Below, in pieces: positions 956 to 34,323 of a stretch of DNA of 35,163 bases. The stretch's first letter is position 1. Every line of letters begins with the position of its first letter. A program made the position numbers and the translations under genes. Source of the stretch: Bacillota bacterium (GTDB taxonomy: Bacteria > Bacillota > Clostridia > Christensenellales > Aristaeellaceae); assembly GCA_023443705.1 (NCBI GenBank), contig JAEZTD010000250.1, forward strand, positions 1-35,163, read 5' to 3'. The notes beneath the pieces were generated by a model. That model was not told where the DNA came from, searched no databases, and was given only the letters and a program-made list of their open reading frames with translations.

Positions 956-1160
956 AAGGCAACGAAAACCCCTGCGGTTGTTTCGATGCGAAGGAAGAAA
1001 TTCTGCGTGCGCCTGAAATCCTCACGGATATCCGGGCGGCGCACTGACCAAAGGTGTGGATAGCGCCACCAGTGTGCGTACTGGTGGCGCTATCCCGTTC
1101 CCGGCATACACGCCGCCGGGAACGATTGAAACCCTACCGATGCTTTGTTGATGGTCTGAA
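954..1160. repeat. copy 1 of a 208-nt structured interspersed element (TCAAGGCA...GATGGTCTGAA)
   Basis: It aligns end to end with 21753-21960, roughly nine-tenths identical by eye. It contains a 16-bp perfect hairpin (1058-1073/1080-1095), a 9-bp hairpin (1097-1105/1115-1123), a 7-bp helix (1007-1013/1038-1044) and a closing helix (1046-1053/1143-1156). Confidence 0.85.
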
Positions 1161-8361: not shown

Positions 8362-10014
8362 TTATCCGATGGTCAGTTCGACCGGCACCTTGTAGTCAAA
8401 GCTCTTGCGGATGGCGGCGAGGATGTCGCCGTGGCCGTCCTTGAGGCTCATGGTGGCGGAAGAGGTGACGTCGGCGAGGTGGGTCTTGTCCTCATCGGAG
8501 AGGGCGTTGTATTTCGCCACATCCTGCTCATTGGAGGAATCGGCCTTCAGCGGACGGCCGTTGACGTCGGAGGTATACTTGGCGAACCAAGCGTCCACCT
8601 CGTCCACGGTCATGCCGACGAAGAGCTTCTGGAAGGCGTCCATCTCGTTCTGCCAGGTGGTGGTGTTCAGCTTGTAGCCTTCGCCGCGCTCACGCTTGGT
8701 CTTCCAGCCGGCGACGTCGGCCAGGAAGCTGTCGTCGGTGCTTTCGGAGACGGAGTCGACCTTCTCGTCGTGGTCGGCGTCCATGTTGTAGCCGCCCTGT
8801 CCCGGGTAGCCGCTGAAGTGAGGCATGGATTCGCCGTCGTAGTTGGGCGAGGCGACCTCCACCTGATCCACCTGGATGGCGGCGATGCGGCCCTCGGCGT
8901 CAAACAGCGTCACGGCGACGACATCGTTGAAGGAATAGACGGGGACTTCCTTGTCGTCCTTGCCGGGGCCGATGCGGCCGTTGTGGGACGCGCCCAGGCC
9001 AAAGCCTGTGGCGGACGTGGCCGTCAGCGGAACGCGGTTTTCATAGGCCTTGCGGATGGCGGCGAGGATGTCGCCGTGGCCGTCCTTGAGGCTCATGGTG
9101 GCGGAGGAGGTGACGTCGGCGAGGTGGGCCTTGTCCTCGTCGGAGAGGGCGTTGTACTTCGCCACGTCCTGCTCATTGGAGGAATCGGCTTTCAGCGGGC
9201 GGCCGTTGACGTCGGAGGTGTACTTGGCGAACCACGCGTCCACTTCGTCCACGGTCATGCCGACGAAGAGCTTCTGGAAGGCGTCCATCTCGTTCTGCCA
9301 GGTGGTGGTGTTGAGCTTGTAGCCTTCGCCGCGCTCGCGCTTGGTCTTCCAGGCGGCGATTTCGGCCAGGAAGCTGTCTTCGGTGTTCTCGGAGACGGAG
9401 TCAACCTTCTCATCGTGGTCGGCGTCCATGTTGTAGCCCGGCTGGCCCGGCAGGCCGCTCAGGTGGGGCATGGATTCTCCGTCGTAGTTGGGTGTGGCGA
9501 CCTCCAGCTGGTCGATGTTCAGGTGCAGGATCTTGCCTTCGCCGTCAAAGATCGCGCTGGCGTACACCTCGTTGAAGGAGTAGACCTGCACATCCTTGTC
9601 GTCCTTGCCGGGGCCGATGCGGCCATTGCTGACGATGCCGAGGCCCAGGTACGCGTCCGCAGCTTCGATGACGGCGGGCGCCTCGGCCGCTTCTGCTTCG
9701 GTGGTCAGCCCCAGCGCACTCGAAACAGCGGCCAGAATGGCCTTGCCGGTGTAGGTCGCACCGGAAACCACGTCCACTTCGACACCGTTCGCCTCGACGA
9801 TCTTCGCCGGCAGCCCTTCAAGCGCCAGCGTGCCGATGCCGTCTGTTTCCTTCGCGCCGGTTGCCTCGACGGAGACAATCTTGCCGTCCTCAACCGTCAC
9901 GGTCACCTCGACCGGGCCGCCGAAACCATCGGCGGTTCCGGTGAACACTTCGGCCTGCGCCGCGATGCTCACCATCAGAAGCAATGCGACCAGAATGGAA
10001 ACCAACCGCTTCAT
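8362..10014 (-). CDS. exported FMN-binding domain protein with two tandem copies of an uncharacterised ~215-aa domain
   Basis: The signal peptide is MKRLVSILVALLLMVSIAAQA. An FMN_bind-like segment follows (GFGGPVEVTVTVEDGKIVSVE...VDVVSGATYTGKAI). Two repeats of GRIGPGKDDK...NYDGESMPH...WKTKRERGEGYKLNTTTWQNEMDAF... come after it. Confidence 0.75.
   Translation of the reverse strand: MKRLVSILVALLLMVSIAAQAEVFTGTADGFGGPVEVTVTVEDGKIVSVEATGAKETDGIGTLALEGLPAKIVEANGVEVDVVSGATYTGKAILAAVSSALGLTTEAEAAEAPAVIEAADAYLGLGIVSNGRIGPGKDDKDVQVYSFNEVYASAIFDGEGKILHLNIDQLEVATPNYDGESMPHLSGLPGQPGYNMDADHDEKVDSVSENTEDSFLAEIAAWKTKRERGEGYKLNTTTWQNEMDAFQKLFVGMTVDEVDAWFAKYTSDVNGRPLKADSSNEQDVAKYNALSDEDKAHLADVTSSATMSLKDGHGDILAAIRKAYENRVPLTATSATGFGLGASHNGRIGPGKDDKEVPVYSFNDVVAVTLFDAEGRIAAIQVDQVEVASPNYDGESMPHFSGYPGQGGYNMDADHDEKVDSVSESTDDSFLADVAGWKTKRERGEGYKLNTTTWQNEMDAFQKLFVGMTVDEVDAWFAKYTSDVNGRPLKADSSNEQDVAKYNALSDEDKTHLADVTSSATMSLKDGHGDILAAIRKSFDYKVPVELTIG
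8404..9693. repeat. intragenic tandem duplication, 2 units of 645 bp (about 8404-9048 and 9049-9693)
   Basis: The shadow ORFs 8405..8677 and 9050..9322 differ at 3 of 90 residues. The first ~300 nt of each unit are nearly identical and the rest is clearly more diverged. Confidence 0.9.
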
Positions 10015-11562: not shown

Positions 11563-12648
11563 TTAGCATGTCGGGGCCTCCCTCCGCTCGGCGTCCGGGT
11601 GGTCGCCACGCGAAAAGTCAGGCTGGAACCCGGCGGATTCGATCCGACGGCTGAGGCAGGAAAGGCACTCCGCCGCCTCCTCGCCGGTGCAGATTTTGTT
11701 GTCGTAGAGCGCGTAATCCTTTCGGTGCCGGACGGGGGAGAGGTTGGGCATCACCACGTTGGCTCCCGCCTGAAGACCCTTTTCCCGTCCTCCGGGGTCG
11801 ATGGTGCCCAGCGCCGTGGTGGCAGGCAGCAGCACCTTCGGCAGAAGAAGCCGGACGATGGACAGAAGAATCAGCGTCCTGTCCGCCGTGGGCGTGGGCA
11901 GGTTCCTAAAGCGCGTGTCCTTCTGGGGGATGAAGGGGCCGATCCCCACCATGTGGGGTTTGAGGTCCAGGAGAAAGAGGAGGTCCTCCGCAATCGTTTC
12001 AATGGTCTGGAGCGGGGATTCCACCATAAAGCCCGCGCCCACTTGAAAGCCCAGTTCTCTCAGGTCGTAGAGGCAGCGCAGGCGGTTCTCAAGGCGCATC
12101 TCAGGCGGATGCAGCGCTTCGTAATGGGCTTTGTCCGCCGTCTCGTGTCGCAGAAGGTACCGGTCCGCGCCCGCTTCGCGCAGGCGCCGGTAGGAATCGC
12201 GGCTGCGCTCGCCCAGGGACAGCGTCACCGCCGAATCCGGGAACCGCGCCTTGATCTCCGACACGACGCGGCACATCCTGTCGTCGTCAAAATACGGGTC
12301 TTCGCCGCCTTGCAGCACGAAGGTGCGAAAGCCCAGGCTGTGCCCGGTGTGGCAGCAGCCTAGGATTTCTTCCTCCGTCAGCCGGTAGCGCACCGCGCTA
12401 TTGTTGCTTCTGGAGAGGCCGCAGTAGTGGCAGCCGTTTTTGCAGTGGCTGGAGAACTCAATGAGCCCCCGAAAGAAAACCTTCTTACCAAAGTGCGCCG
12501 AGCGCGCCTCGTCCGCCATGCGCCGAAGCGCTTTCCGCGCCTCAGGCGGCGCTCCATCCAGGAAAAAGCGCAGCATCGCCTGAAGCGCCGGCCTTTCCGC
12601 GCCGCTCAGCCAGCGGGTGAAGGCAGTATGTTCCGTCGGATAATTCAT
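11563..12648 (-). CDS. hydE: [FeFe] hydrogenase radical SAM maturase HydE
   Basis: The radical SAM motif CKNGCHYCG and a biotin-synthase-like body support the call. ATG at 12646-12648 lies 7 nt after AGGAG. Confidence 0.9.
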   Translation of the reverse strand: MNYPTEHTAFTRWLSGAERPALQAMLRFFLDGAPPEARKALRRMADEARSAHFGKKVFFRGLIEFSSHCKNGCHYCGLSRSNNSAVRYRLTEEEILGCCHTGHSLGFRTFVLQGGEDPYFDDDRMCRVVSEIKARFPDSAVTLSLGERSRDSYRRLREAGADRYLLRHETADKAHYEALHPPEMRLENRLRCLYDLRELGFQVGAGFMVESPLQTIETIAEDLLFLLDLKPHMVGIGPFIPQKDTRFRNLPTPTADRTLILLSIVRLLLPKVLLPATTALGTIDPGGREKGLQAGANVVMPNLSPVRHRKDYALYDNKICTGEEAAECLSCLSRRIESAGFQPDFSRGDHPDAERREAPTC

Positions 12649-12658
12649 GCGCACGCTC

Positions 12659-14110
12659 CTAAAGCCTCAAGTCACGTTCGCCTGCCTCGATCCGTCGGAG
12701 CGTGGCGGCGATCTTTTCGTACACCGGCTCGCCCTTGAACTTGTCGAGGTGTTCAATGAGCGTCCGCTCGCCCTTTTCGCGGGCTTCGGGCGAGGCATAG
12801 TCGATCAGGTATTCCTTTAGCGTGAACAGTGCGTTCGGGATGCAGTAATTGTGCACAAACTTGGATTTTGCGACCTTCATGAAGTGGTCGCCGGTGCGCC
12901 CGGCGCGGTAGCAGGCGGTGCAGAAGGACGGCACGCAGCCCATGTCGCAGACTTCCTGCACGATCTGATCCAGCGGCCGGTCGTCGCCGATCGAAAACTG
13001 CTCCTGATCGGGCAGCGCGTTCGCCCGCTGGGACGCGTGGTACGCGCCCACGCCGATGCGGGTGCCGCCGTCGATCTGCGAAACGCCGAAGGGAATCACG
13101 GCGCGCCGCACGCTGTCCGGTTCCCGGGCGGTGCAGATGAGCCCGGTGTAGGGCACCGACAGCCGGAGCACCGCCACCAGCTTTTTGAAGTCCTCATCGC
13201 TGACGGCGTACTCCGGATGCTCGGAGTAGGGGGTGCCGGTGGCAGGCGTGATGCGGGGGAAGGAGATGGTGTGCGGGCCGACGCCGCCGAAGGTTTCCTC
13301 CAGATGGATGGTGTGGTAGAGAAGCCCCATGACTTCAAAGCGCCAGTCGTACAGCCCGAACAGCACGCCGAGCCCCACGTCGTCCACGCCCGCCTGCTGC
13401 GCCCTGTCCATCGCGTAGAGCCGCCAGCGGTAGTGCCCCTTGATGGTGCCCTTGGGGTGCACGCGGCTGTAGGTCTCGTGGTGGTATGTCTCCTGGAACA
13501 CCTGGAAGGTGCCGATGTCCACATCCCTGAGTTTTCTGAGTTCCTCGACGGTCAGCGGCGCGCAGTTGATGTTGGCGCGTCGGATCTCGCCGTTTCGGTG
13601 CTTGACCGAATACACCTGCCGGATTGACGCGCACATGAAATCGATGTCCGTGGCGGGGGATTCGCCGTAGACGAGCACGGTGCGCTTCTGCCCCTCTTCA
13701 ATCATGATGCGGACTTCCTCGGCGATTTCATCCATCGAAAGGGTCGTTCTGTGGATCGCGCGGTTACTGGCGCGGAAGCCGCAGTAAACGCAGTTGTTGG
13801 CGCATTCGTCCGATATGTAGAGCGGCGCGAAGAACACGATGCGGTCGCCGTAGACTTCCTCCTTCAGCCGGTGGGCCAGGCGGAACATCTCCTCGATCGT
13901 CTCCTCGTCCCGGTTCTGAAGCAGAATCGCGGTCTCCTCAGGCTCCAGCCGCACGCAGCCCTCAGCCTTTTTCAGAACCCGGCGCACATCCTCCCGGGAG
14001 GGGTTCTCCCACCGGTTCAGCTGCGCCCAGATCACTTCATCGTCGATGAAGTCCCGGTTCATCCGGTCGTAGGCCTCGAATTCCGCCCTGTACTTGTCCA
14101 TAAAACCCAT
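12659..14110 (-). CDS. hydG: [FeFe] hydrogenase radical SAM maturase HydG
   Basis: It has the motif CANNCVYCGF and a C-terminal Cys cluster (CVPSFCTACYRAGRTGDHF). An AAGGGGG RBS lies 7 nt before the ATG. Confidence 0.9.
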   Translation of the reverse strand: MGFMDKYRAEFEAYDRMNRDFIDDEVIWAQLNRWENPSREDVRRVLKKAEGCVRLEPEETAILLQNRDEETIEEMFRLAHRLKEEVYGDRIVFFAPLYISDECANNCVYCGFRASNRAIHRTTLSMDEIAEEVRIMIEEGQKRTVLVYGESPATDIDFMCASIRQVYSVKHRNGEIRRANINCAPLTVEELRKLRDVDIGTFQVFQETYHHETYSRVHPKGTIKGHYRWRLYAMDRAQQAGVDDVGLGVLFGLYDWRFEVMGLLYHTIHLEETFGGVGPHTISFPRITPATGTPYSEHPEYAVSDEDFKKLVAVLRLSVPYTGLICTAREPDSVRRAVIPFGVSQIDGGTRIGVGAYHASQRANALPDQEQFSIGDDRPLDQIVQEVCDMGCVPSFCTACYRAGRTGDHFMKVAKSKFVHNYCIPNALFTLKEYLIDYASPEAREKGERTLIEHLDKFKGEPVYEKIAATLRRIEAGERDLRL

Positions 14111-19792: not shown

Positions 19793-20152
19793 TTATTCTG
19801 TAATCTCCCAGCCCTGTTTGAAAAGGCGATACGTCTCGAAAGCTTTACATTCCTCTTGGCCATCGATGATGAAGGAATCGTCGGGTAAACCAATGATGAG
19901 AGATAACTTTGAGGCCTCAACAACATCCGCCAGGTGTTCGTAGCTTGCGGCCTGAATATGCGGTTCGATGTTGAAATTTACCAATCCGATCCCGGCATAG
20001 ATGATTTGTGCGGTCTCGTCATCGTGCGGATCCTTTGCCAAAACGACGTGCTTAGCCATGTTGTTGGAACCGGCGCTCATTCCGATGGTGATCACATCCC
20101 TCGCTTGGAGGACGGGGATCAGGCCATAGTCTCTGATGTAGGCAATCTGCGG
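19793..20152 (-). pseudogene. 5'-truncated fragment of a peptidase S51 (dipeptidase E)-like gene
   Basis: The frame is open only from 20152 and has no credible start. It contains an S51-like nucleophile segment (VITIGMSAGSNNM) and a C-terminal half. The upstream part is replaced by unrelated AT-richer DNA. Confidence 0.5.
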
Positions 20153-20427
20153 TTAAAGCACGATTTTCAGCATGAAACAGCGCTTTGCATATCGAACGGT
20201 GCATTTAAGGGCGCAATGCAGGCGGCTGGTTTTAGTCCAAAGGACGAACGAGAAATAAACGCTGTGTATAAGATACGGCAGCCCAAGCGTCAAAAGGCGC
20301 CAAGGGGATTGCGGGCCAAAGAACATGGCTTCCATGTTGAGTATGATTCCACTGGAGGTGCAAGCGTTACAAGGAGCGAGAACGGGGCGATTCGTCCTCC
20401 CTGACAGATTCTCCGGGGGCCTGGTAT

Positions 20428-20527
20428 AAGCGGCTCGATGCGGCGTATAAACGCTCTCAAACGAAAATACAAGGGAAGCAATGAGTGGGCGTCATTTCGA
20501 TGGCATCCACTTTTATGTTAATGGGCA
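20428..20527. repeat. conserved block R1, copy a (copy b at 25030-25130)
   Basis: AAGCGGCTCGATGCGGCGTATAAACGCTCTCAAACGAAAATACAAGG...GTGGGCGTCATTTCGATGGCATCCAC aligns with 25030-25130 with few mismatches. Confidence 0.8.
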
Positions 20528-20763
20528 TTTTAGTGAGGCAAGCACAGAACGTGCGGGATAACGAAAAAGTGAAGGCGCTTATAATGGTAGGCTGCTTACT
20601 GGTGTTTACCATAGTCAAATTGCTGTTCTTGCGGAATGTTTCGTTGGGCGCCATTGCTTCGGCAGTATATTGGGGCGCAATGCTTGGGGTGGCGTCTCTG
20701 CTTAGCAAAAGATGGGACAGGCACAAGGCGAAAAAGCGTGGATCGAGTTATGTAGAGGAATAG
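20485..20763 (+). CDS. small three-TM membrane protein with a highly charged C-terminal tail (holin-like architecture, function unknown)
   Basis: The 92-aa ORF has a GTG start inside R1. It shows three hydrophobic segments and then SKRWDRHKAKKRGSSYVEE. No homology was recognised. Confidence 0.5.
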   Translation: MGVISMASTFMLMGILVRQAQNVRDNEKVKALIMVGCLLVFTIVKLLFLRNVSLGAIASAVYWGAMLGVASLLSKRWDRHKAKKRGSSYVEE

Positions 20764-20784
20764 GCGAAAAATAGAAGTGGGGGG

Positions 20785-20886
20785 GAGGGGTATTTCCTTC
20801 TTCCTTGTTCCGATCCACACCCTGAGAGAGGGTAGCATGAAGGCATATCGCTCTATATGCGAATGGTTCCTATTCATGTGCAAAAC
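20785..20886. repeat. conserved block R2, copy a (copy b at 26435-26528)
   Basis: The shared sequence is TTCCTTGTTCCG.TCC.CAC..GAGAG.GG.AGCATG...CATATCG...ATG.TTCCTATT.A..GCACAAA. Confidence 0.7.
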
Positions 20887-20974
20887 AGCTTCCCATACTG
20901 GTTCTCATATAACATGCCTAGAGGGTTTGATTTGAGAGTATAGTCGAATCAAGTGGCACAGGAGTTTAGCATAT

Positions 20975-21448
20975 ATGAGTGAAGAGTTGGAGTTTGTAGA
21001 TGTTTCCTTTTCTCGGGGATTGGAGGTCTATTCAGTAGCGCGAAAACGATATGGATACGTTGTGAGAATTATGAAAAACATTACAACTGGAGAAAAGATA
21101 ATTACTGTACGATTTTATGATAACCGAGAAGTTGTTTTATTTGTATTTACAATTTGATCGGGAAGTAACATAATTCATGCTGATCTTTATAAAAATGTAG
21201 TTTTAAAATACGTTCAAGCATTTAATGATATCGAGTCAGAATCTAAAGTATCAATGTATTGTTCACTAAATTTATGCGAGAGAGTTTCTTGCTTCAGGTT
21301 TATGTATAGAATTATAAAAGGCAAATATAGTAACGCCCATTCGCTCAGAGGGAGAGAGAATATTGTTACGAAACACACAAGTATTTACGATACTTCGGAT
21401 GGCGGATTTATAAAAAATGCAGGTTGTATAGAAATGAGCGATATATAA
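20975..21448 (+). pseudogene. 157-codon AT-rich reading frame interrupted by one in-frame TGA (21155-21157)
   Basis: Track ORFs 20975..21157 and 21254..21448 are in the same frame, with no other stop between them. AGGAG lies 10 nt before the ATG at 20975. Confidence 0.4.
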
Positions 21449-21613
21449 ATTATCTATATATTTTTCTGTTTTACGCATATGTTGCGCAATTAATTGTTGG
21501 TATTGAGATGAAAGTGTGATTTTTATTTTTACCTAACCGCCCCCTTCCTCAAACATCAACACAGGTGTGACTTGGAGATTGTAGCCATTCTCCCAAATGG
21601 GTAAAAACGGAGA

Positions 21614-21752
21614 TAAGTGGTCATTTTCAAGCTGGTTGTGGTATTTATTATGGTCAAGCGCAGTTGAGGTAAACCGGCCTGATTGCGCAATTTGTGCAAG
21701 GAGAACAAAGGAAACCCCAATATATAATGAAAACCCACCGCTGTTCGGTGGG
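21614..21752. repeat. copy of the tRNA-proximal end block of the integrative element (paralog of 28359-28497)
   Basis: AAGTGGTCATTTT.AAGCTGGTTGTGGTATTTATT.TGGTCAAGCGC...TGTGCAAGGAGAACAAAG...AAAACCCACCG..GTT..GGTGGG is shared with 28359-28497. Confidence 0.8.
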
Positions 21753-21960
21753 TCAAGGCATCGAAAAACCCTATGGTTTTTTCGATGCGAAGGAAGGAAA
21801 CCTGCGTGCGCCTGAAATCCTCACGGATTTCCGAGCGGCGCACTGACCAAAGGTATAAATAGCGCCACCAATATGCGTACTGGTGGCGCTATCCCGTTCC
21901 CGGCGTACACGCCGCCGGGAACGATTGAAACCCCTACCGAGACTTTGTTGATGGTCTGAA
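21753..21960. repeat. copy 2 of the 208-nt structured interspersed element
   Basis: It aligns with 954-1160. It is flanked by an exact 18-nt direct repeat, CCACCGCTGTTCGGTGGG, at 21735-21752 and 21961-21978. Confidence 0.85.
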
Positions 21961-21983
21961 CCACCGCTGTTCGGTGGGTTTGT

Positions 21984-22033
21984 TGGTGGAGCATAGGGGA
22001 TTTGAACCTATGACCTCTACGATGCGAAAGTGT
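21984..22033 (-). other. displaced 3' fragment of tRNA-Ala (att repeat at the distal end of the integrated element)
   Basis: It matches 28503-28552 (acceptor 3' strand through the anticodon loop), with exact blocks of 19 and 18 nt. Three mismatches break the T-stem. Similarity ends at about 22033. Confidence 0.8.
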
Positions 22034-22125
22034 ACTCATAGTGTTTTGGTGTGTTTCGCCGTCCCGAAATACCCCTGAAATACAAGGGTTTGCCGATTGC
22101 CAAGTATGCCTAGTGTTGCTTCGTG

Positions 22126-22155
22126 TTGTGGTAATTGTGGTCAGAATTGTGGTCA
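22126..22155 (+). promoter_or_regulatory. three direct TTGTGGT(C)A repeats, candidate integrase arm-type binding sites
   Basis: TTGTGGTA is at 22126-22133, and TTGTGGTCA is at 22135-22143 and 22147-22155. The same motif pair recurs at 28381-28401 and 21636-21656, each about 100 nt from a tRNA-derived core. Confidence 0.5.
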
Positions 22156-22569
22156 AAATCCCGGGCTGATCGGGGTGTGTTTAGCCCTCCATGTCAAGCT
22201 GCCAATCATCAAAGAACATCTGTTTTCATTGAAAAAAATCGCATCAGCAGTAAACACCGGCATTAGTCGGAAACGTTTCCGTAAGCTATATTTGATCGAT
22301 CAACGATTGTCAGCGCATGTAAGGGGGGCTGCCTATAAACGGGCCGCTCTGATACATGCTATCTTCCTGCTTGCATCCCATCGAGCCGCACCACGCACAG
22401 ACCCTGAGGGGAGGGGACAATTACCACCCTATGCGCGCGGCTTGCGTCCGTCCCCAGAAGGTGAGATGCATGCAGAGACATGAGAAAGCCCCCCCTGGGG
22501 GAGGGCGAAGTGGGTCCTACTTTCCGCAAATGCAAGAGGCTGTCGCGATTTTTTTTGGCACCCCACCGG

Positions 22570-23715
22570 TCAAAAATGCTGTAGGGCTTCAAGGGCTTTC
22601 TTCTTGGTTTCCATGCTGCTATGAACGTAGGTCTGAAGCGTGAAGGCGACTTTGCTATGACCGATCAATTCACCAACCGTGCGAACGTCAACCCCGGCGC
22701 GGATCAGGTTTGTAGCGAATGAATGCCGGAGCGCATGGAGGCCCCGATGCTTCAATCCTGCCCGTTTCAAAGCCGCTGTGAGCGTCCTTCTGAGGTTGGC
22801 CGGGTCTTTGATCGCCCCGGATTCGGCAGAGAACACATACCCGTTATCCTGCCATAGTTCACCGGCTGCAAGCTTCCGCTCTGCATATAGCTTGCGTTGC
22901 GTCTGGAGAATTGCGGAGGTTGCCGGAACAATCGGGATTTCGCGCTTCCCTGCTTTCGACTTGGGCGCAGCGATGGACAGGGCGGTTTTGCGCTCGTCTT
23001 CCTTGGCATCGAAAGCCTTGACACGAACCGCTCCCTGCCGTACTGTGAAATGGTCTGCGTCTACATCTGCCCAGCGCAGCGCACAGAGTTCCGAAACGCG
23101 GAGGCCGGTATTGAGGATGAACCGCAGACAACGCCCATTGTCCGTATCGGGCAGCGATTCCATGAGCTTCTTTTGCTCGTCAGGCTCAAAGAAATCAACT
23201 TCGCGCTGTTCCATCTTGGGTTGCATCACGCCATCAGCCGGGTTCTTTGCAATGAGGCCGTTAATGACCGCCTGCTTGAGCGCGGCTTTGAGGACTTCAA
23301 TCATCTTCCGAACCGTTGCGGGCTGCTTGTCCTTGGACTGCTCATTGATAAAGCGCTGGATCTGCTCCACCCGCAGCTTTTGAAGCTGAACCTTTCCCAT
23401 GGAAGGGATGAGGTAGGTCTTGATATTTGAATCGTACACCGTTGCGGTCGATTCCCTGTGCGAGGGCCTGAAATACACTTCAAACCACGAATTCAGCCAG
23501 CCCGAAACCGTCATCTTGTCCGGCGCAATATACAGCCCTTCGTCGAGCTTCTTTAAAACGTCGCGCAGCTTTATCCGCACTTCGTCCTGGGTGGCAGCAT
23601 ATACGCTCCGCCTTATCAGGGTTCCGTTCGGCTTCCGTCCGCAGCTGTAAATGCCTTCCCAGCGCCCATCGGGCCGCTGACGAATGCAACCCTCACTGTT
23701 CGCTCTCTTGGACAT
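22570..23715 (-). CDS. int: tyrosine-type site-specific integrase
   Basis: The catalytic region reads HALRHSFATNLIRAGVDVRTVGELIGHSKVAFTLQTYVH, and the N-terminus is SAM-like. ATG at 23713-23715 lies 6 nt after AAAGGAGG. Confidence 0.9.
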   Translation of the reverse strand: MSKRANSEGCIRQRPDGRWEGIYSCGRKPNGTLIRRSVYAATQDEVRIKLRDVLKKLDEGLYIAPDKMTVSGWLNSWFEVYFRPSHRESTATVYDSNIKTYLIPSMGKVQLQKLRVEQIQRFINEQSKDKQPATVRKMIEVLKAALKQAVINGLIAKNPADGVMQPKMEQREVDFFEPDEQKKLMESLPDTDNGRCLRFILNTGLRVSELCALRWADVDADHFTVRQGAVRVKAFDAKEDERKTALSIAAPKSKAGKREIPIVPATSAILQTQRKLYAERKLAAGELWQDNGYVFSAESGAIKDPANLRRTLTAALKRAGLKHRGLHALRHSFATNLIRAGVDVRTVGELIGHSKVAFTLQTYVHSSMETKKKALEALQHF

Positions 23716-23884
23716 TGTGGGCCTCCTTTTCAACGCTGTTCGATAATGCTGCCTTTCGCATCGAAATAATCTCATCTCGTACCAACTTCAAACCAGCAGG
23801 AACATGAAGAAGCAACGCCTGTGCTACGCTGTCGCCATCTAGGACTGAGTTCTTAGTGCTATAGCCCTCTGTAACCCCTCCCAT
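23693..23884 (-). CDS. possible small HTH/excisionase-like protein overlapping the int start (weak)
   Basis: The 63-aa ORF overlaps the int start by 23 nt. The segment SVAQALLLHVPAGLKLVRDEI is loosely HTH-like. No convincing RBS is present. Confidence 0.25.
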   Translation of the reverse strand: MGGVTEGYSTKNSVLDGDSVAQALLLHVPAGLKLVRDEIISMRKAALSNSVEKEAHNVQESEQ

Positions 23885-23919
23885 TCGAGATCGAGATTCG
23901 GGATCGGCTGCAATACGGC

Positions 23920-24108
23920 TTGCCAGTTGAGAAGTGGGAATGGTACAAGACCTCCGATCTTAAGCCATACATCCCGGGCTATGCGACCGGGGAGCAGATA
24001 GGTCGCGTGCTTCGAAAGCTGGCGAAAGAGGACTCGCGTATTGTAATCAAGACACCGGGAAACATTCGTCACTACCTGCTTCCGTTGGTGCGGTCTTCCT
24101 TCATGTAG
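23920..24108 (+). CDS. possible small winged-helix-like protein, or the C-terminal remnant of a larger (primase-like) gene
   Basis: It has a TTG start and no RBS, and the frame is open only from 23875. The pattern ..GEQIGRVLRKLAKEDSRIVIKTPGNIRHYLLP resembles C-terminal tails of P4-type primases. The ORF ends exactly at the iteron cluster. Confidence 0.3.
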   Translation: MPVEKWEWYKTSDLKPYIPGYATGEQIGRVLRKLAKEDSRIVIKTPGNIRHYLLPLVRSSFM

Positions 24109-24115
24109 GGGGGGA

Positions 24116-24359
24116 GTTAATGGGGTTAAGGCGGAGTTAATGCGGAAATCGCGGGTGCCTTAACCCCGAAAACCCTTGTATTCATTGGGTTTCCAGACCG
24201 TAGTTAAGGTTGTTAATGCACATTCTAATGAGCTGTAAGAAGTTGGTGTATAAAAAATAAACATAGGGAAATGTGCCTTAACTGCATTAACAAGACCAAT
24301 AAAAAGCCTTGATTTATAAGGGTTTGTGGCGTGATTCGGGGTTAATGCGGTGCCTTAAC
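24116..24359. repeat. cluster of ten GTTAAKGC motifs in both orientations around an AT-rich core (iteron/operator array)
   Basis: Forward sites start at 24116, 24125, 24136, 24203, 24212 and 24341. Reverse sites (GCMTTAAC) start at 24157, 24275, 24284 and 24352. An AT-rich stretch (GTATAAAAAATAAACATAG) lies at 24248-24266. Confidence 0.8.
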
Positions 24360-24429
24360 ATCCTTCACTTCCATGTCGCCCGCGCCCGTGCGACCGACAC
24401 GACCAAATCAAAAGTGAACAAGGAGCAAC

Positions 24430-24708
24430 ATGCGACGGAAAATATCAGTAGGCGTCCGGGATCTCGCTGCCGTTCAGCGCATCTTGGAGGGTGCGGAGAT
24501 CGAGCAGTTCCTTACTGGCCCGGCAGTTGACTTTGGTTGGGTGTGTGGCCGGACGCGGATAGGGCTAATTCTTCGACGGCCTAACGGTTCAAGACTGCTA
24601 TTGAGCTTGTTTGCTGGGGGAGTGATCGAAAGCCCTTTGCTCGGAAACATCCACAGGATTCCACCCATAGGCAAAATACAGGAGGACAAACCCAATGAGG
24701 CAGATTGA
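24430..24708 (+). CDS. hypothetical protein (92 aa)
   Basis: AAGGAG lies just upstream of the ATG at 24430. The ORF overlaps the next ORF by 14 nt. No family was recognised. Confidence 0.55.
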   Translation: MRRKISVGVRDLAAVQRILEGAEIEQFLTGPAVDFGWVCGRTRIGLILRRPNGSRLLLSLFAGGVIESPLLGNIHRIPPIGKIQEDKPNEAD

Positions 24709-25012
24709 TACGAAGTTGAACATTCTGGATTACTTTGATTCGCTTACATGGCGGGAGGTGCCTGACCTCAAGGCGCTTCGCGAGATGTTGCGCGGATGCA
24801 CCATCGAAGAAACTGAACAAGCTTGTACGGAGTTCGATGACGAGCAGGGCATCCCACTCTATGCAGCGTTGTTTTTGAAGGTTGCCGCTCCTGACGGTCG
24901 GCGTATTGCGGTTCAACTCCTTGCAGAAGACCCCATTGGGCTTTCGGGTTGGCTCGTTGCTTCGGTCGCTGATATAGGCAATCAGAGCGGCGAAGGAACG
25001 CCCCCTTCCTGA
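24695..25012 (+). CDS. hypothetical acidic protein (105 aa)
   Basis: AGGAGG lies 9 nt upstream of the ATG at 24695. A diverged, truncated counterpart appears to exist at about 20230-20404, just before R1a. Confidence 0.55.
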   Translation: MRQIDTKLNILDYFDSLTWREVPDLKALREMLRGCTIEETEQACTEFDDEQGIPLYAALFLKVAAPDGRRIAVQLLAEDPIGLSGWLVASVADIGNQSGEGTPPS

Positions 25013-25029
25013 TACACGCCCCAGCCCGC

Positions 25030-25130
25030 AAAACGGCTCTGTGCGGCTCACAAACGCTCTCAAACGAAAATACAAGGACAGTCTCTTGTGGGCGTCATTT
25101 CGATGGCGTCCACGCTCATGTTATTGGGCA
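25030..25130. repeat. conserved block R1, copy b
   Basis: It aligns with 20428-20527. It retains the GTG start and first ~13 codons of the 92-aa membrane-protein frame (VGVISMASTLMLLG), then diverges and stops at 25175-25177. Confidence 0.8.
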
Positions 25131-25336
25131 ATAAGAATTACATACAGAATAACCGGCAAAGTGAGCCAAGCCCTTGACAACGGCACGGAAAAGCAGTACA
25201 TTTGAACTGATAACTATATGCACAGATTTGGTTAACTTGATGAAAATCCAAATGGCAGACCGCCTCTAAGTAGACTTAGAAGCTGAATGATGTGTTTTAC
25301 TCCGTGCAAGGTGCGTTGAACATTGGAGGAATAACA

Positions 25337-26287
25337 ATGTGCTATTTGCGAAAGGTCATTACTGGTTTCGCTTTCCTTGCCGCGCTTATTTTCCCTTTTG
25401 TTTCCTTTGGCGATAGTATTCTCATTCCTGTAGATTTGGGATGCACGCCAAATCAAATGCTTGAATATATATATAGTCATTCGGACTGTGACGCTGTGAA
25501 GTTGAGTGAGTATGATTTTCATGTTGATGTGAGAGGCGAATCTGGACACTCGATAATGGCTTTAAAGAACGGCTTTTTTCAGGCATATATGATTAATGAG
25601 AAGACGAAAAACATCCATACGTTGAATATTGGTTTCGATAAAGAAGCGGACGTTGATAAGATAACGGCTTCTGCCAACATTTTCATGGATACGGTAAGGA
25701 TTGTTATGGAGAGGATCGGGAGATTGTCCGATTATTCATCTCTCGTTGACAGGATCGGAACTGAGAATATAAACTCATATTTCACCGATATTCAGACAAG
25801 CGTTTCGTACAACGGTGTCACTTATATTTTTGGTTCGGACATAAAAAGTGTGTCGCTGTTTGTGAGCGTGGATGATATAGATTCAGCGAAAATGAGTGTG
25901 GACAATGAAGTTGATTGGCAAGACGCAAGGACAGTATTAGCGGCAATGGAGAAAACCGGTGAAATTTCAGCGGGAGGAAAGAAAATCTATAATAAGTACA
26001 CCGACATAGTAGATAAAACAATAAGCGGAGGATCCGATATCTATTTCTATGATAAATTCACAGGCGAACACGCATATAACCGAATTACCGTTTATTACAG
26101 TACTGCAAGAGCTATTGAGGTTGAAAATAGCATCAATAGCCTATCGTACTATTTCCCTGAAACGATGCCAAGGTGTTATAGATTTAAAAATTGTGTACTC
26201 GTGTTGTCTTCAGAAATTGGCTCATATATGGAGCTGAAATATGCCGTTGCCTTTTATAAGGCTTTCCAAACACAGCAAGATAACTAA
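25337..26287 (+). CDS. secreted hypothetical protein (316 aa), AT-rich cargo gene
   Basis: GGAGG lies 7 nt before the ATG at 25337. The signal peptide is MCYLRKVITGFAFLAALIFPFVSFG. This is the most AT-rich long ORF in the window. No family was recognised. Confidence 0.7.
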   Translation: MCYLRKVITGFAFLAALIFPFVSFGDSILIPVDLGCTPNQMLEYIYSHSDCDAVKLSEYDFHVDVRGESGHSIMALKNGFFQAYMINEKTKNIHTLNIGFDKEADVDKITASANIFMDTVRIVMERIGRLSDYSSLVDRIGTENINSYFTDIQTSVSYNGVTYIFGSDIKSVSLFVSVDDIDSAKMSVDNEVDWQDARTVLAAMEKTGEISAGGKKIYNKYTDIVDKTISGGSDIYFYDKFTGEHAYNRITVYYSTARAIEVENSINSLSYYFPETMPRCYRFKNCVLVLSSEIGSYMELKYAVAFYKAFQTQQDN

Positions 26288-26434
26288 TCCAATTTACCCC
26301 CAGGTTCTGCGGCTCTCATCGGATAAGACTATTAATGTCGATCTTTCAAACACCTCCAGCCGTTTGCCGGGCGTTTGGACGGACGCAGACTGATTGTCCA
26401 CAGTTTAGGTCGAATTAATGCGGATGGGAAAGGC

Positions 26435-26528
26435 GGGGTTTCCTCCTTCCTTGTTCCGTTCCCCACAGAGAGGGGGGAGCATGCCTCATATCGGCACTTA
26501 ATGAGAATGATTCCTATTTACGCACAAA
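26435..26528. repeat. conserved block R2, copy b
   Basis: It aligns with 20785-20886. It includes a small hairpin with one compensatory change: CCCT/AGGG in copy a versus CCCC/GGGG in copy b. Confidence 0.7.
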
Positions 26529-26562
26529 GGCCCACCATGCAGGCGGCTATTCTTATTCCATG

Positions 26563-26585
26563 CATCTAGTTTTAGAAACTAGATG
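26563..26585. terminator. perfect 10-bp inverted repeat between convergent cargo genes (bidirectional terminator or operator)
   Basis: The sequence is CATCTAGTTT-tag-AAACTAGATG. Confidence 0.45.
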
Positions 26586-26701
26586 GAGCTGGGGCTGCTG
26601 TTGGCTCTATTTGCGAACAAGAAGCACTTGAGTATGTACAATTTATTGAGCTGTTTCCCCGAACAGCCGCGGCGTGTGACCTTCCTGAAATTGCTGGAGG
26701 C

Positions 26702-27112
26702 TTATTCCCCGGAGCCCAAGCGCTCGTCCTTTGCTTTCAGAGCTGTCCCTATTTGAATTATATCATTGTCAACACAAAGCAAGCCGTTTTCTAGGTTGTA
26801 GTAAACGGTGCGAGGGTTGTTGGGGCCCAAGAAAATAAAGTCGTTTGGGCCTTCTGATTGTGTCATAGGCTTGAGTGTGACGCGAAGTTCGACGCCAATA
26901 CATCTGAAATCTGATTGGAGTACTCTGTTATACCTTTCTAAGCATTCTGTCGCAATTCTTTTGCAGTCCTCCTCATTCGGTAATTGATCGGCATTTATAA
27001 GCGTATCATCGTAAAAATATGCCATTGTTCCCCACGAATCGCGGTTGTTATCAAAAATGTCAATCCTTACATTCCATAGATCTCTTTCCTTGCTACTTAG
27101 TGGCTTTATCAT
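26702..27112 (-). CDS. hypothetical protein (136 aa) co-transcribed with the XRE regulator
   Basis: GGAGGAG lies 6 nt before the ATG at 27110-27112. The start overlaps the last 20 nt of the XRE gene. No family or catalytic motif was recognised. Confidence 0.65.
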   Translation of the reverse strand: MIKPLSSKERDLWNVRIDIFDNNRDSWGTMAYFYDDTLINADQLPNEEDCKRIATECLERYNRVLQSDFRCIGVELRVTLKPMTQSEGPNDFIFLGPNNPRTVYYNLENGLLCVDNDIIQIGTALKAKDERLGSGE

Positions 27113-27329
27113 GATCTTCTCCTCCATCTTCCACGTACTCCATGATATCGCCTGGTTGACAGCCAAGTGCGCGACACAGGTTGTTGATCGTACGTGTATC
27201 CACATATCCTTCATTTTTCATAAGCTTCGCATAAGTGGCCTGACCCACTAGACCGGCTTTCCGGATTTTAATGTTAGTCCATCCTTGTGCGCGTAGCAAT
27301 TCATGTAGCTTATTAAATACAATAGCCAT
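27093..27329 (-). CDS. XRE-family (Cro/CI-type) helix-turn-helix regulator
   Basis: In this 78-aa protein, ..IRKAGLVGQATYAKLMKNEGYVDTRTINNLCRALGCQPGDIMEY is a typical short XRE HTH. GGAGGATAAAA precedes the ATG. Confidence 0.85.
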   Translation of the reverse strand: MAIVFNKLHELLRAQGWTNIKIRKAGLVGQATYAKLMKNEGYVDTRTINNLCRALGCQPGDIMEYVEDGGEDHDKATK

Positions 27330-27361
27330 TTTTATCCTCCGTCATCGTTCTTTCCCTCAAC

Positions 27362-27390
27362 AGTATAACAGAAAGCGCACACCATGTCTA
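27362..27390 (-). promoter_or_regulatory. candidate promoter of the XRE/136-aa operon
   Basis: On the minus strand: TAGACA (27385-27390), 17-nt spacer, TATACT (27362-27367). Confidence 0.45.
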
Positions 27391-27432
27391 GTGCAATAGC
27401 CCCACATGCAATACACTAAAGATTGTGCAATT
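27391..27432. promoter_or_regulatory. three direct RTGCAATW repeats between the divergent promoters (candidate XRE operators)
   Basis: GTGCAATA is at 27391-27398, ATGCAATA at 27406-27413 and GTGCAATT at 27425-27432. Confidence 0.45.
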
Positions 27433-27440
27433 ATCCGGTA

Positions 27441-27469
27441 TTGAGATTACACTAGATATGGTGTATAAT
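27441..27469 (+). promoter_or_regulatory. strong sigma-A-type promoter with extended -10, driving the 89-aa/101-aa genes
   Basis: TTGAGA (27441-27446), 17-nt spacer ending in TGT, then TATAAT (27464-27469). Confidence 0.55.
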
Positions 27470-27597
27470 GTTGACGGAGGTTGAGGGAAGCACACAAGAA
27501 GCCCAACGGGAACCGGATGCGAAAGGCAGTGCCAATAAGCCCGAGTAAGCAGAAGCCGCCCCGCCCCAACCGATCAACACGAAGGAGGTTTTCAACA

Positions 27598-27867
27598 GTG
27601 TCACAGCATGAGATCGTCGCCACTGTCACCGAGCTTCAGGAGTTGCGCCGGATGCAGGAAGAACTGGAGGCCGCTATCGAGGCCGCACAGGACAAGATCA
27701 AGGCCCACATGGGCGAGGTCGAGGAACTGACCGCCGGGGGGTTCAAAGTCACATGGAAGGCCGTCACCAGCAACCGCCTGGACGCCACCGCATTGAAAAA
27801 GGCCCTGCCGGAAGTGGCGGAGCGGTTCACCAAGACCACCACCGCGCGGCGCTTCATGGTAGCGTAA
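27598..27867 (+). CDS. hypothetical coiled-coil protein (89 aa)
   Basis: GAAGGAGG lies 9 nt before the GTG at 27598. The sequence TELQELRRMQEELEAAIEAAQDKIKAHMG...ALKKALPEVAERFTK looks like small proteins I recall from clostridial mobile elements; this is unverified. Confidence 0.6.
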   Translation: MSQHEIVATVTELQELRRMQEELEAAIEAAQDKIKAHMGEVEELTAGGFKVTWKAVTSNRLDATALKKALPEVAERFTKTTTARRFMVA

Positions 27868-27987
27868 AAGCCGCCCACCTTCCACAGCGACGGCTTTCGC
27901 AGGAACTTACCAACCGAATCGGCTGGAGGCTCACACAGAGTATAGCGCGGGGCCTCCAGCCGGTCAAGTACGAAAGGAGAGGTTTTC

Positions 27988-28293
27988 ATGAAACTGAATC
28001 CCGTCAACACGTCGAACCTCGTGTATGTTCTTCGAGATGCCCTTCTGTACCACAGCGTGTATTGCGCTCGCCCGGAAGACGTGGAAACGCCGGATAAAGC
28101 AATCTGCAGAACCGAAAAAGCCTGCAGCGAGATCATGAAGCGGGTCGAGTGCGCCGATTTGCAGGAGGAAATTGAAAACGCATACGCGGAGTGTCTTGCA
28201 GCTTATGAATGCTCCGGCTTTCAGCGTGGTATCCAGGCGGGGGCGCAGCTCATGCTTGAACTGCTAGGTAAGGGACCGTACAAGGAAGGCTAA
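27988..28293 (+). CDS. hypothetical protein (101 aa)
   Basis: AAGGAGAGG lies before the ATG at 27988. A terminator follows the stop. Confidence 0.6.
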   Translation: MKLNPVNTSNLVYVLRDALLYHSVYCARPEDVETPDKAICRTEKACSEIMKRVECADLQEEIENAYAECLAAYECSGFQRGIQAGAQLMLELLGKGPYKEG

Positions 28294-28315
28294 GCCACCG
28301 GAACCGAGCCGACAG

Positions 28316-28340
28316 CGGGGCGTAGATCGCCCCGTTTTTC
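28316..28340 (+). terminator. Rho-independent terminator of the 89/101-aa operon
   Basis: CGGGGCG-tagat-CGCCCCG is followed by TTTTTC. Confidence 0.75.
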
Positions 28341-28358
28341 TATGCTCAAAACCGGGGA

Positions 28359-28497
28359 AAAGTGGTCATTTTGAAGCTGGTTGTGGTATTTATTGTGGTC
28401 AAGCGCGGCTGGGGAGAATCGGTCAGATAGTGTGTTTTGTGCAAGGAGAACAAAGAAAGCTCGAATACAAAGCGAAAACCCACCGTGTTTTGGTGGG
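28359..28497. repeat. tRNA-proximal end block of E1 (paralog of 21614-21752), including arm-type repeats at 28362-28401
   Basis: It aligns with 21614-21752. It contains GTGGTCA (28362-28368), TTGTGGTA (28381-28388) and TTGTGGTCA (28393-28401). Confidence 0.8.
28471..28497 (-). terminator. Rho-independent terminator of tRNA-Ala (unoccupied homolog of the site carrying repeat copy 2)
   Basis: The minus-strand RNA reads CCCACC-aaaacac-GGUGGG followed by UUUUCGCUUU. Confidence 0.75.
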
Positions 28498-28502
28498 TTT
28501 GA

Positions 28503-28578
28503 TGGTGGAGCATAGGGGATTCGAACCCCTGACCTCTACGATGCGAACGTAGCGCGCTACCAGCTGTGCTAATGCCCC
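28503..28578 (-). tRNA. tRNA-Ala (anticodon CGC), CCA encoded
   Basis: The manual cloverleaf is GGGGCAT/ATGCTCC acceptor with G3-U70, anticodon stem CTACG/CGTAG, loop TTCGCAT, and T-arm AGGGG-TTCGAAT-CCCCT. The D-stem has one mismatch. Length is 76 nt. Confidence 0.9.
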
Positions 28579-32546: not shown

Positions 32547-32818
32547 TCATACTACCGCGTTCTAATCATATACCATTTGTGTGCGCCCGGAGCATTTCGC
32601 TTCGGGCGTTTAGGCTATAAACAGATTCTTTGCACAAACCAAATCGTCCCCGGTGGCGTGGAAATTGGACGCGCGATGTGCGTCCCTACGAAGGACGCCG
32701 AGCAGCGGCGCCACCCAATCCCTGTCGTTCCTTCAAATCGTTCCCGGCGGCGTGTACGGCGGTAACGGTTCTCGTAGCCAGTGCGCACACCGGCGGAGGA
32801 AACGATTCCTTTAAGTAA

Positions 32819-32851
32819 GGAAGACTGAACCCCAAAGTGGTTCAGTCTTCC
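32819..32851. terminator. 13-bp perfect hairpin downstream of the isomerase/kinase operon
   Basis: GGAAGACTGAACC-ccaaagt-GGTTCAGTCTTCC lies about 70 nt after the stop at 32920. No clear U-tract is present. Confidence 0.45.
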
Positions 32852-32919
32852 GAAGTATCCCGTTCCCACGTGTCAAAATGTCCGCAGGAGATTTGGACGC
32901 AAGCGCGTCAGCGCAATCG

Positions 32920-34323
32920 TTAGCTGTGCCTGTAGATCTCCCACCCCATGTAGTTGGAGAGCGCCTCTTCCAGCACATCCGCGCACTCAGCCTGGGTCAG
33001 CGCCACATGGTGCTCGTAGCCGTTTTTGGTCAGGTGGCGCATCAGGCCGCTCAGGTTCTCCACCTCGCACACCGCCACGCCGCCGAAGGTGGGGAGGGGG
33101 TCGTCGGTAAAGCGTCCCTCGCCGAGATAGCCCTTGACGACGCCGCGCCGGTCGTCGGTGGAGAGCTTGAGGTAGGTCATCTTTGCCGGGCGCACGCGGC
33201 CCTTCAGCGCGCCGAAGGACACATCCGCGCCCAACGTGGTGGCGAGGATGTCCAGGTTCGCGATCTCCGGCTTTTCCTCAAACGCGCAGGCGGGGTAGTT
33301 CGAGCAGTGGACGTTGATGCACTTGTCCGGCTCGTCTTTATAGTTGTTGTTCCAGTCCTGATAGATCGGCGGAACGCCGGAGGCGTTCAGGAGCGCCAGC
33401 ATCGAAACGGCGCCCATCACATCGGTCTCGCAGGCGCTGGGACGGCCCTTTTCGCCCATCATGCTCATGCCCAGGCACATCGCGCAGCCGTAGTTGGCCT
33501 CCACGCTGTCCCAGCACTGGATCGCGCTGGCGGTGCAGCGGTGGGCGGCCATCCAGTCCTCAACGGCGAGGATCAGCTTTGCCTGGCGCTCCAGCTTTTC
33601 CTGGGTGCCGCAGGGCGCGACGTTGCCGTAGGCGCGAATCTCCGCGACCTTCTGGTCGATGCGGGCGCGGTCCGTCATTTCGTTCGCGTCGGCGAGAATT
33701 TCGGAAAAGTCCTCGGTCTCGACGGTAATCCCGCTCAATTGCAAGAGCTTTTCGGAATAACGCACGGTGCGGAAGGGCGTGACGCGGGCGCCGATCTGGC
33801 CGATGCGGGCGGTTTTCAATGCCTTGACCACCCGGCAGACGCCCGCGAAGAATGCAACATCTTTTTTGAATGCTTCGGACAGAATCGCGCAGGTGTGGCG
33901 GCTGGTCAGCGTGTACTTGATGCCGTACTGGTAGAGGTTGTTGCACAAGGACAGCTTGCCGCAGAACGCGTCGCGGCGGTTTTCCAGCTGCAGCTTGTCA
34001 AAGTCGTCGTCGCAGGCCTGGATGAGGATTGGACAGTCGAGCTTCGACATCCGCATCGCGTCGGCGATGCCGGCTTCCTCGCCGAAGTTGGGAAGGCAGA
34101 TGATCACGCCGTCGATCTCGTCCGCGTGGGTGCGGAAGAGCTTCGCGCACTTCTCGGCCTCCTCATAGCTCATGGTCTCGCCCATGTTGGTGTCCTCGGT
34201 GGACAACGTGACGACTTTGTGGCCCCAGGATTCGAGGGAGCTTAAAAGCTGCTCCCGGGCGGTCAGCACCAAGTGATCCGGGAAGAAGGAGCGGTTGGAG
34301 ATCAGAACGCCAAAGGTAGCCAT
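32920..34323 (-). CDS. L-fucose/L-arabinose isomerase-family protein
   Basis: MATFGVLISNRSFFPDHLV...GVIICLPNFGEE...DAFCGKLSLCNNL is typical of the FucI-like family. AGGAGG lies 7 nt before the ATG at 34321-34323. Confidence 0.85.
   Translation of the reverse strand: MATFGVLISNRSFFPDHLVLTAREQLLSSLESWGHKVVTLSTEDTNMGETMSYEEAEKCAKLFRTHADEIDGVIICLPNFGEEAGIADAMRMSKLDCPILIQACDDDFDKLQLENRRDAFCGKLSLCNNLYQYGIKYTLTSRHTCAILSEAFKKDVAFFAGVCRVVKALKTARIGQIGARVTPFRTVRYSEKLLQLSGITVETEDFSEILADANEMTDRARIDQKVAEIRAYGNVAPCGTQEKLERQAKLILAVEDWMAAHRCTASAIQCWDSVEANYGCAMCLGMSMMGEKGRPSACETDVMGAVSMLALLNASGVPPIYQDWNNNYKDEPDKCINVHCSNYPACAFEEKPEIANLDILATTLGADVSFGALKGRVRPAKMTYLKLSTDDRRGVVKGYLGEGRFTDDPLPTFGGVAVCEVENLSGLMRHLTKNGYEHHVALTQAECADVLEEALSNYMGWEIYRHS

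Follow-up and report, generated by a model that had tools for sequence, protein, structure and literature searches.

For insertion sequences in the IS1182 family, ISfinder lists direct repeats of 0-60 bp. Two elements of this family, IS1272 and TnSha1, insert into terminator hairpins without sequence specificity, and their insertions delete the stem-loop partly or wholly and leave no duplication (PMC4923244; PMC5678879). IS1182 elements are also over-represented between convergent genes (PMC9208149). The model of Wan et al. includes a pathway b that would duplicate the whole stem-loop, an outcome that was hypothetical in that paper. Long direct repeats of 16-17 and 27-28 bp have been reported for the IS1202 family (bioRxiv 10.1101/2022.12.17.520857). 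In the literature that we found, whole-hairpin duplication in the IS1182 family appears only as a prediction, and a search for terminator-duplicating MITEs returned nothing directly relevant.

The contig analysed here (35,163 nt, referred to as the window) carries at 21753-21959 a small unit which is very probably a MITE employing the ends of an IS1182-family IS and moved by a transposase that acts in trans and recognizes a hairpin as a structure, the stem-loop of which becomes duplicated. It resembles IS1272 and TnSha1 in that its partner transposase is a DDE enzyme of the IS1182 family (NF033551, PF05598, PF13751) and that terminator hairpins, often located between convergent genes, are targeted by structure (PMC4923244, PMC5678879, PMC9208149). 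It differs from them in being a 207-nt non-coding derivative instead of an IS, and in the fate of the target: IS1272 and TnSha1 delete the stem-loop and produce no duplication, while the family described here duplicated it in 7 insertions. The whole-hairpin duplication is the alternative outcome predicted by Wan et al., and it can be seen here in natural before/after views at several loci. The preliminary description had considered 18 nt unusually long for the duplication of an IS. The duplication is indeed long, but the IS1202 family, in which a DDE-type IS also produces long target duplications, provides a precedent; what is unusual is that the length follows the hairpin. In the IS1202 family, by contrast, the lengths are fixed per subgroup and have no tie to hairpins, and the transposase belongs to a different family.

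Structure of the copy 2 locus

Two exact plus-strand matches to the 18-nt sequence CCACCGCTGTTCGGTGGG exist in the window (21735-21752 and 21961-21978), so the hairpin does occur on both sides of the repeat as had been described. Allowing up to 3 mismatches yielded no third match in the window, and at the same stringency none of 100 dinucleotide-preserving shuffles contained at least two matches. The segment between the 18-nt repeats (21753-21960) is 91% identical to 954-1160, where another copy of the unit (copy 1) is located. The element itself, referred to as MITE copy 2, is 207 nt long (21753-21959, plus strand), has the form TCAAGG...GGTCTGA and scores 200 bits against the family model. 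Its left terminal repeat (21753-21768) is degenerate, and the right one (21944-21959) is identical to the IRR of an IS1182-family IS found at locus L045. Four internal hairpins were placed approximately at 21758-21788 (H1), 21806-21843 (H2), 21858-21894 (H3), and 21895-21923 (H4).

On the left side, the stem-loop copy CCCACCGCTGTTCGGTGGG (21734-21752), which contains the exact 18-nt repeat at 21735-21752, is preceded by an A-tract (21730-21733) representing the minus-strand U-tract of a bidirectional terminator. On the right side, a junction base A (21960) lies between the end of the element and the second 18-nt stem-loop copy (21961-21978), the target-site duplication, which is followed by the T-tract TTTGTT (21979-21984), the plus-strand U-tract of the original terminator. 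As the left hairpin copy has C where 21960 is A, the duplication is either exactly 18 nt or 19 nt with one change. A pattern scan for terminators identified the left hairpin as a minus-strand terminator with the tail TTCATTATAT and the right hairpin as a plus-strand terminator with the tail GTTTGTTGGT. Next to the T-tract lies a 48-nt tRNA-Ala 3′ fragment on the minus strand (21984-22031; 87% identity to 28480-28550), which matches 28503-28550 of the intact tRNA-Ala(CGC) and is an attachment-site remnant of tandemly integrated elements. Reading the minus strand, the order of tRNA-Ala 3′ fragment, hairpin, unit, hairpin, and TTTTCATTAT proposed in the preliminary description was confirmed. The target hairpin of copy 2 is a bidirectional terminator carried by the tRNA-Ala elements beside the 3′-end of the tRNA.

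Empty sites and the other copies in the window

The preliminary description pointed to a homologous block in the window with a single hairpin and no insert, and this paralogous empty site was found at 28475-28502 (AAAACCCACCGTGTTTTGGTGGGTTTGA, that is, AAAA-CCCACCGTGTTTTGGTGGG-TTTGA), where it adjoins the intact tRNA-Ala(CGC) gene (28503-28578, minus strand). In the alignment, 21603-21753 corresponds to 28348-28498 and 21961-22031 to 28480-28550; 18 nt of the empty site (28480-28497) align to both flanks of the copy 2 insert.

Copy 1 (954-1159, plus strand, 206 nt, 192 bits against the family model) lies between the pyruvate kinase gene and a convergent nitroreductase gene, and is bracketed by a left hairpin at 929-952 (GCCCCCGGCAGAACTGCCGGGGGC) and a slightly decayed right hairpin at 1161-1183 (GCCCCGGCAGTTCTGCCGAGTGC). 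Its empty orthologue at locus L034, where the nitroreductase is 88% identical, has a 47-nt spacer with one hairpin, GCCCCCGGCAGATTCTGCCGGGGGC, and BLAST aligns the two flanks of copy 1 to one shared 26-nt stretch of it (L034:1550-1575). In the left hairpin, the middle 12 nt (GGCAGAACTGCC) read as the reverse complement of the centre of the right one, and since the empty orthologue carries the right-hand loop orientation, it is the left loop that is flipped relative to both. The opposite loop orientation noticed earlier in copy 1 is real, yet it is an exception: one clear flip and one ambiguous case stand against five direct repeats. The simplest reading is a later inversion of the loop or a template switch during gap repair.

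A second orthologous pair is formed by the insertion at L015 and its empty counterpart in L043 (galactonate dehydratase 96% identical), which has one hairpin whose stem equals that of the left copy of L015. The two hairpins of L015 differ only at one central base and two compensated stem pairs. When L015:1577-1605 is compared with L043:11171-11203, two compensated base pairs set the right hairpin of L015 apart from the ancestral stem, a rapid change that preserves structure in the copy retaining the T-tract. Altogether three empty sites, one paralogous and two orthologous, were found, each with a single hairpin, while a double hairpin without the unit was absent from every locus examined, related genomes included. 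The presence of single hairpins and the absence of double ones among the unit-free sites of related genomes leave the insertion-with-duplication reading intact.

The third copy in the window (32718-32903, minus strand, 145 bits against the family model) is a divergent family member without flanking duplication, and it begins 17 nt past the stop codon of a fucose-isomerase-like gene. This locus (window 32551-32920; L036:11404-11642) holds different family members in two conspecific strains whose flanks are 99.3-99.7% identical. The swap extends exactly from stop codon to stop codon and comprises the spacer between the fucose-isomerase-like and aldo-keto reductase genes.

Hairpin duplication across the family

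To collect the family, a 20-mer invariant in the three window copies (954-1160, 21753-21960, and the divergent minus-strand copy at ~32718-32903) was searched against contigs representing one genome per species. This gave 23 loci, 20 of which belong to MAGs of uncultured Clostridia/Bacillota. The units are 203-208 nt long and non-coding, and copies occur at unrelated loci in the source species and in several related MAGs. Four copies are present within the ~52 kb that was read of the source species; the fourth of these (L029:11625-11830) reads AAAAA[GCACAGCAGCGAATGCCGCTGTGC]TCAAGG...GGTCTGA[GCACAGCAGGCGAATGCCGCTGTGC]TTTTT. The same MITE locus is represented in two MAGs of one species (L028:15027-15229 and L029:11625-11827), whose flanks are identical and whose units show several differences inside; these could be due to collapsed-repeat assembly or to gene conversion between copies.

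In a test of 24 copies, the 50 nt upstream of each unit were compared with the 90 nt downstream, and 544 mismatched flank pairs served as controls. Flank-to-flank similarity was 16-30 in six of the copies against a control maximum of 12, and no flanking duplication was present in the other 18. Further duplicated cases are copy 0 of L029, L045, and L046. In seven insertions the unit lies between duplicated copies of a local hairpin (18 to ~33 nt), and an eighth, which is cut by the contig end, shows only the left junction at a hairpin. The duplications measure 18, 21, 24-25, 25, 26, and ~32 nt, each corresponding to the local stem-loop within 0-3 nt. The eight target hairpins all differ in sequence and have no sequence consensus; hairpins are different between loci and alike within a locus. 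The ends of the element (TCA...TGA) are nucleotide-identical in at least seven independent insertions. In every duplicated case the A-tract lies to the left of the insertion and the T-tract to its right, which agrees with the earlier claim that the unit sits between the stem and the U-tract of a terminator. Convergent transcription units flank six of the seven duplicated sites, partly according to GC3-based gene calls.

These data demonstrate insertion with hairpin duplication, the length of which tracks the size of the hairpin. The preliminary description stated that its reading would fail if flanking hairpin repeats were missing from other copies; such repeats were found in 6 of the 24 tested copies and also in L045 and L046, so its reading of an insertion with duplication was right, and the evidence supports hairpin-directed transposition by an IS1182-family system as the cause. 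The length of the duplication is then set by the structure of the target.

About ten members without duplication start 0-6 nt after an upstream stop codon, namely those of L004, L018, L024, L025, L036, L005, L017, and L012/L014/L023. The L018 copy, which is 90% identical to copy 2, has no duplication and directly abuts the stop codon. An obligatory sense orientation was considered for the family and dropped, because two copies are antisense.

An IS1182-family partner element

All-against-all BLAST of the loci collected earlier had revealed no repeated IS. The partner IS was found after relatives of the fucose-isomerase-like gene (91% identical) were fetched. At L045 (GCA_040768845.1), one terminator was struck twice, by the MITE and by a full IS, and three identical 21-nt hairpins resulted: the hairpin AGCCCCGCCAAAGGCGGGGCT at 11602-11622 is followed by the MITE (11623-11825), a second copy of the hairpin (11826-11846), the 1602-bp IS (11847-13448), and a third hairpin copy (13449-13469). 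MITE and IS are each flanked by this 21-nt hairpin and are therefore alike in target type and in duplication. L046 contains the same MITE-hairpin-IS junction (L046:11210-11589), along with a further MITE that has a different hairpin directly at its left end, where the contig ends.

The 1602-bp IS has the inverted ends TCAGCCCATCAACAAA (IRL) and TTTGTTGATGGTCTGA (IRR). The latter matches the 3′-end of both window units at 16 of 16 positions, and the 5′-end of the unit, TCAAGGCATCGAAAAA, matches the IRL at 11 of 16; the chance of an equivalent 11/16 match between the two ends of the unit itself is ~4e-4. What the IS and the MITE have in common is confined to 16 nt at each end, the left end of the MITE being degenerate. 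Three ORF fragments of the IS match the NCBIfam profile NF033551, "IS1182 family transposase," at positions 80-155, 245-348, and 386-487 of 488, with scores of 89, 84, and 104 bits, and they also match PF05598, PF01609, and PF13751. The transposase gene of the L045 IS is broken by frameshifts and spread over three reading frames. The IS is known from related genomes and not from the window's own, of whose species ~52 kb was read.

As judged from sequence comparison, the MITE shares its terminal repeat with a full IS that makes a like duplication, and this IS belongs to the IS1182 family. The shared terminal repeat and the array of L045 lead us to regard the unit as a MITE of an IS1182-family IS, the IS and the MITE both duplicating the whole hairpin. 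In the annotation of MAGs, identical hairpin pairs ~200 nt or 1.6 kb apart can serve as marks of these elements. Elements of this type, MITE or IS, also break short-read assemblies, and short-read contigs obtained with the nitroreductase gene from Logan end inside the unit.

The conserved core of the unit

An alignment of 14 copies displayed four hairpins with compensatory changes in 18 of 43 pairs. When 24 copies were aligned to the model, 94.3% of cells paired and both sides changed in 31 of the 43 pairs; none of 500 shuffles reached the observed level, and slid controls paired at 32-49%. Wobble pairs were counted as 20 G.U against 31 A.C, so there is no excess of G.U on either strand. As G.U is not above A.C, there is no sign of one RNA strand being the selected form of the core. 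The motif ACACGCCGCCGGGAACGATT is highly conserved in the family. Conservation of the core, accompanied by covariation, reaches well outside the young subfamily and spans several orders of uncultured Clostridia.

Searches of databases placed the unit in no described RNA family. With Rfam 15 at gathering threshold, the window and 8 loci yielded tRNA only and the unit was unmatched, and at E up to 10 the region 21500-22200 produced chance-level matches only. The exact 20-mer had 0 matches in viral contigs, the unit was unmatched by blastn in PLSDB plasmids and INPHARED phages, and a two-anchor pattern scan of JGI metagenomes retrieved only 2 loci.

Plain gap repair of a MITE insertion does not predict the flipped loop of copy 1, and the covarying four-hairpin interior is not required by the simple MITE model. 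It is possible, though we regard it as rather doubtful, that the interior is an undescribed structured module with an RNA or DNA function of its own, which was captured by IS1182-type ends and spread to terminators. Possible roles of such a module are a 3′-UTR element, a cruciform donor, or a protein-binding structure. If the interior has its own function, the MITE is the vehicle of a functional cassette; the conserved structured core is in any case of interest to those searching for RNA and DNA structures.

Several other features of the family were observed. A more distant form of the core (40-64 bits to the model) shares one position, just upstream of an rsmH-like gene, in L012, L014, L020, and L023, suggesting vertical retention in these four species. 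A conserved 3′ motif, CGCCGGGAACGATTG, is repeated 2-5 times downstream of some copies (L006:7724-7900; L025:1040-1120; window 32639-32653), and L008:2639-3161 contains a 217-nt unit bearing CGCCGGGAACGATTG in a 2.4-copy tandem array.

Proposed mechanism and alternative explanations

We propose that a transposase supplied in trans by an IS1182-family element would recognize a G+C-rich palindrome by its structure, probably as a cruciform, and not by its sequence. For copy 2, this target would have been the bidirectional terminator downstream of the tRNA-Ala remnant. The transposon's two 3′-ends would each be linked to a different target strand at opposite feet of the stem-loop or no more than ~3 nt away from them, with the attack presumably directed to its 5′ feet. 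Gap repair would then copy the whole stem-loop to both sides of the element, so that the left copy would keep the A-tract and the right one the T-tract. Transcripts arriving from either side would fail to terminate at the hairpin that is devoid of a U-tract, continue through the element and end at the complete terminator on its far side, so the target sites may be nearly neutral landing pads. As both directions regain a complete terminator through the duplication, terminators between convergent genes would be good landing sites. The preliminary description regarded the mechanism as unclear and possibly involving hairpin-dependent or copy-choice steps. The hairpin dependence stands, as the shared IS1182 ends speak for hairpin-directed transposition, but copy choice is not needed.

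The 18-nt repeat is interpreted as the target-site duplication of hairpin-directed DDE transposition because of the empty sites, the recurrence of the duplication, and the existence of an IS with a shared end and the same duplication, and these observations also weigh on the other explanations. Replication template switching (copy choice) could do without a transposase if a nascent strand that had copied the hairpin stalled, jumped to an ectopic unit through 1-3 nt of microhomology and returned upstream to copy the hairpin again. The 1-3 ambiguous bases at both junctions of several copies (T/TC on the left, GA/A on the right) would suit such events and the flipped loop of copy 1 could be one of their products, but ragged ends would be expected instead of ends that are nucleotide-identical in at least seven independent insertions and that correspond to the terminal inverted repeats of a genuine IS duplicating hairpins in the same way; this explanation is accordingly very unlikely. 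We give even less credence to a single-strand-DNA system (HUH/Y1, REP-RAYT, or IS200/IS605-like) that recognizes its own hairpins and inserts beside target hairpins. Four covarying hairpins whose G.U pairs do not outnumber A.C (20 vs. 31) fit a constraint at the DNA level, and the highly conserved motif ACACGCCGCCGGGAACGATT could be accommodated as well, yet such systems have neither target duplication nor terminal inverted repeats, the ends of the element match those of an IS1182-family DDE element, and no Y1 transposase was found among the Pfam-scanned ORFs of the window or the gene calls at related loci.

Two further readings have next to no probability in our judgement. One is that RNA of the element was attached to terminated transcripts at their trimmed 3′-ends, by joining or by reverse transcription, and was then copied back into DNA. 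Antisense copies (L013:2757, L001) and the lack of strand asymmetry in the wobble pairs contradict it, despite the 8 sense versus 2 antisense copies between co-directional genes; the left junction, consisting of the hairpin plus 0-3 nt of the U-tract, does look like a trimmed transcript 3′-end, but the duplication of the right-hand hairpin needs a staggered break at the DNA level anyway, a full IS makes a like duplication, and there is no reverse transcriptase in sight. The other, held to be equally remote, denies any insertion and sees in the unit a resident small-RNA or 3′-UTR gene, with the hairpins as its closing helix or as a terminator pair kept similar by selection. The family is structured, it is usually positioned just downstream of genes and its place upstream of rsmH is conserved in four species, all of which such a gene might explain. 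Close relatives, however, are polymorphic for presence and absence, with a single hairpin at the empty sites, and the hairpins vary between loci but match within a locus. A closing helix of an RNA was rejected on account of the empty sites and because each arm is itself palindromic, which such a helix does not need.

Comparison with other mobile elements

Like other bacterial MITEs (Correia/nemis, RUP, ERIC, MITEAba12), the unit is small, non-coding, multi-copy, and intergenic, has terminal inverted repeats in common with a parent IS, is flanked by a target duplication and has a folded transcript. Those elements make a fixed duplication of 2-9 nt, whereas here it varies from 18 to ~33 nt and is set by the palindrome of the target; the four-hairpin core covarying across orders of Clostridia is another distinction. 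The abundant structured palindromes of the REP/BIME/REPIN type are comparable in their intergenic position at gene 3′-ends and in their mosaic of partly tandem modules. REPs, however, are 20-40 nt long, have a GTAG head, are mobilized by Y1/RAYT and lack terminal repeats and duplication, while our unit is 207 nt long and possesses both.

Group IIC introns home to the stem-loops of intrinsic terminators, which they recognize as structure. They are ribozyme retroelements of at least 600 nt with domains I-VI and without target duplication, unlike the 207-nt unit with its duplication, in which nothing resembling intron domains was seen and which had no intron match in Rfam. During CRISPR spacer integration, as with casposons, Cas1 brings a palindromic repeat to both sides of the insert by staggered attack at its borders. 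That reaction depends on a specific leader or target and gives a duplication of fixed length, whereas no Cas1 is present here and the ends are those of a DDE IS. Ends of the Helitron or IS91 type (TC...CTRR) were also considered and discarded, as insertion did not occur between A and T.

Genomic context

The host DNA has a G+C content of ~60%, and the region ~20400-28500 is richer in A+T. It encodes a tyrosine integrase (22570-23775, minus strand; PF00589, 8.5e-27) of an element at tRNA-Ala, which belongs to the context and not to the MITE, and a Cro/C1-type regulator. The regions ~20400-22031 and 25031-28550 have several segments in common, and this indicates that two related elements are probably integrated in tandem at tRNA-Ala(CGC), occupying 20400-28550 of the window. 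The pair would comprise a full element with the tyrosine integrase and a left remnant that ends at the tRNA fragment 21984-22031. Duplication of an att site by the integrase at this tRNA island was rejected as the origin of the hairpin pair, since the unit also occurs between different hairpins at unrelated loci. Strain L036 diverges from the window below position 23873 and has a VapE-like gene there instead. At the left margin of the A+T-rich region there is a truncated Peptidase_S51 fragment (19793-20095), which may delimit the integrated DNA on its outer side. Elsewhere in the window, a minus-strand gene with an FMN_bind domain contains a 645-nt tandem duplication (8383-9645), which is 93% identical over 300 nt and of which the L032 MAG has a shorter version.
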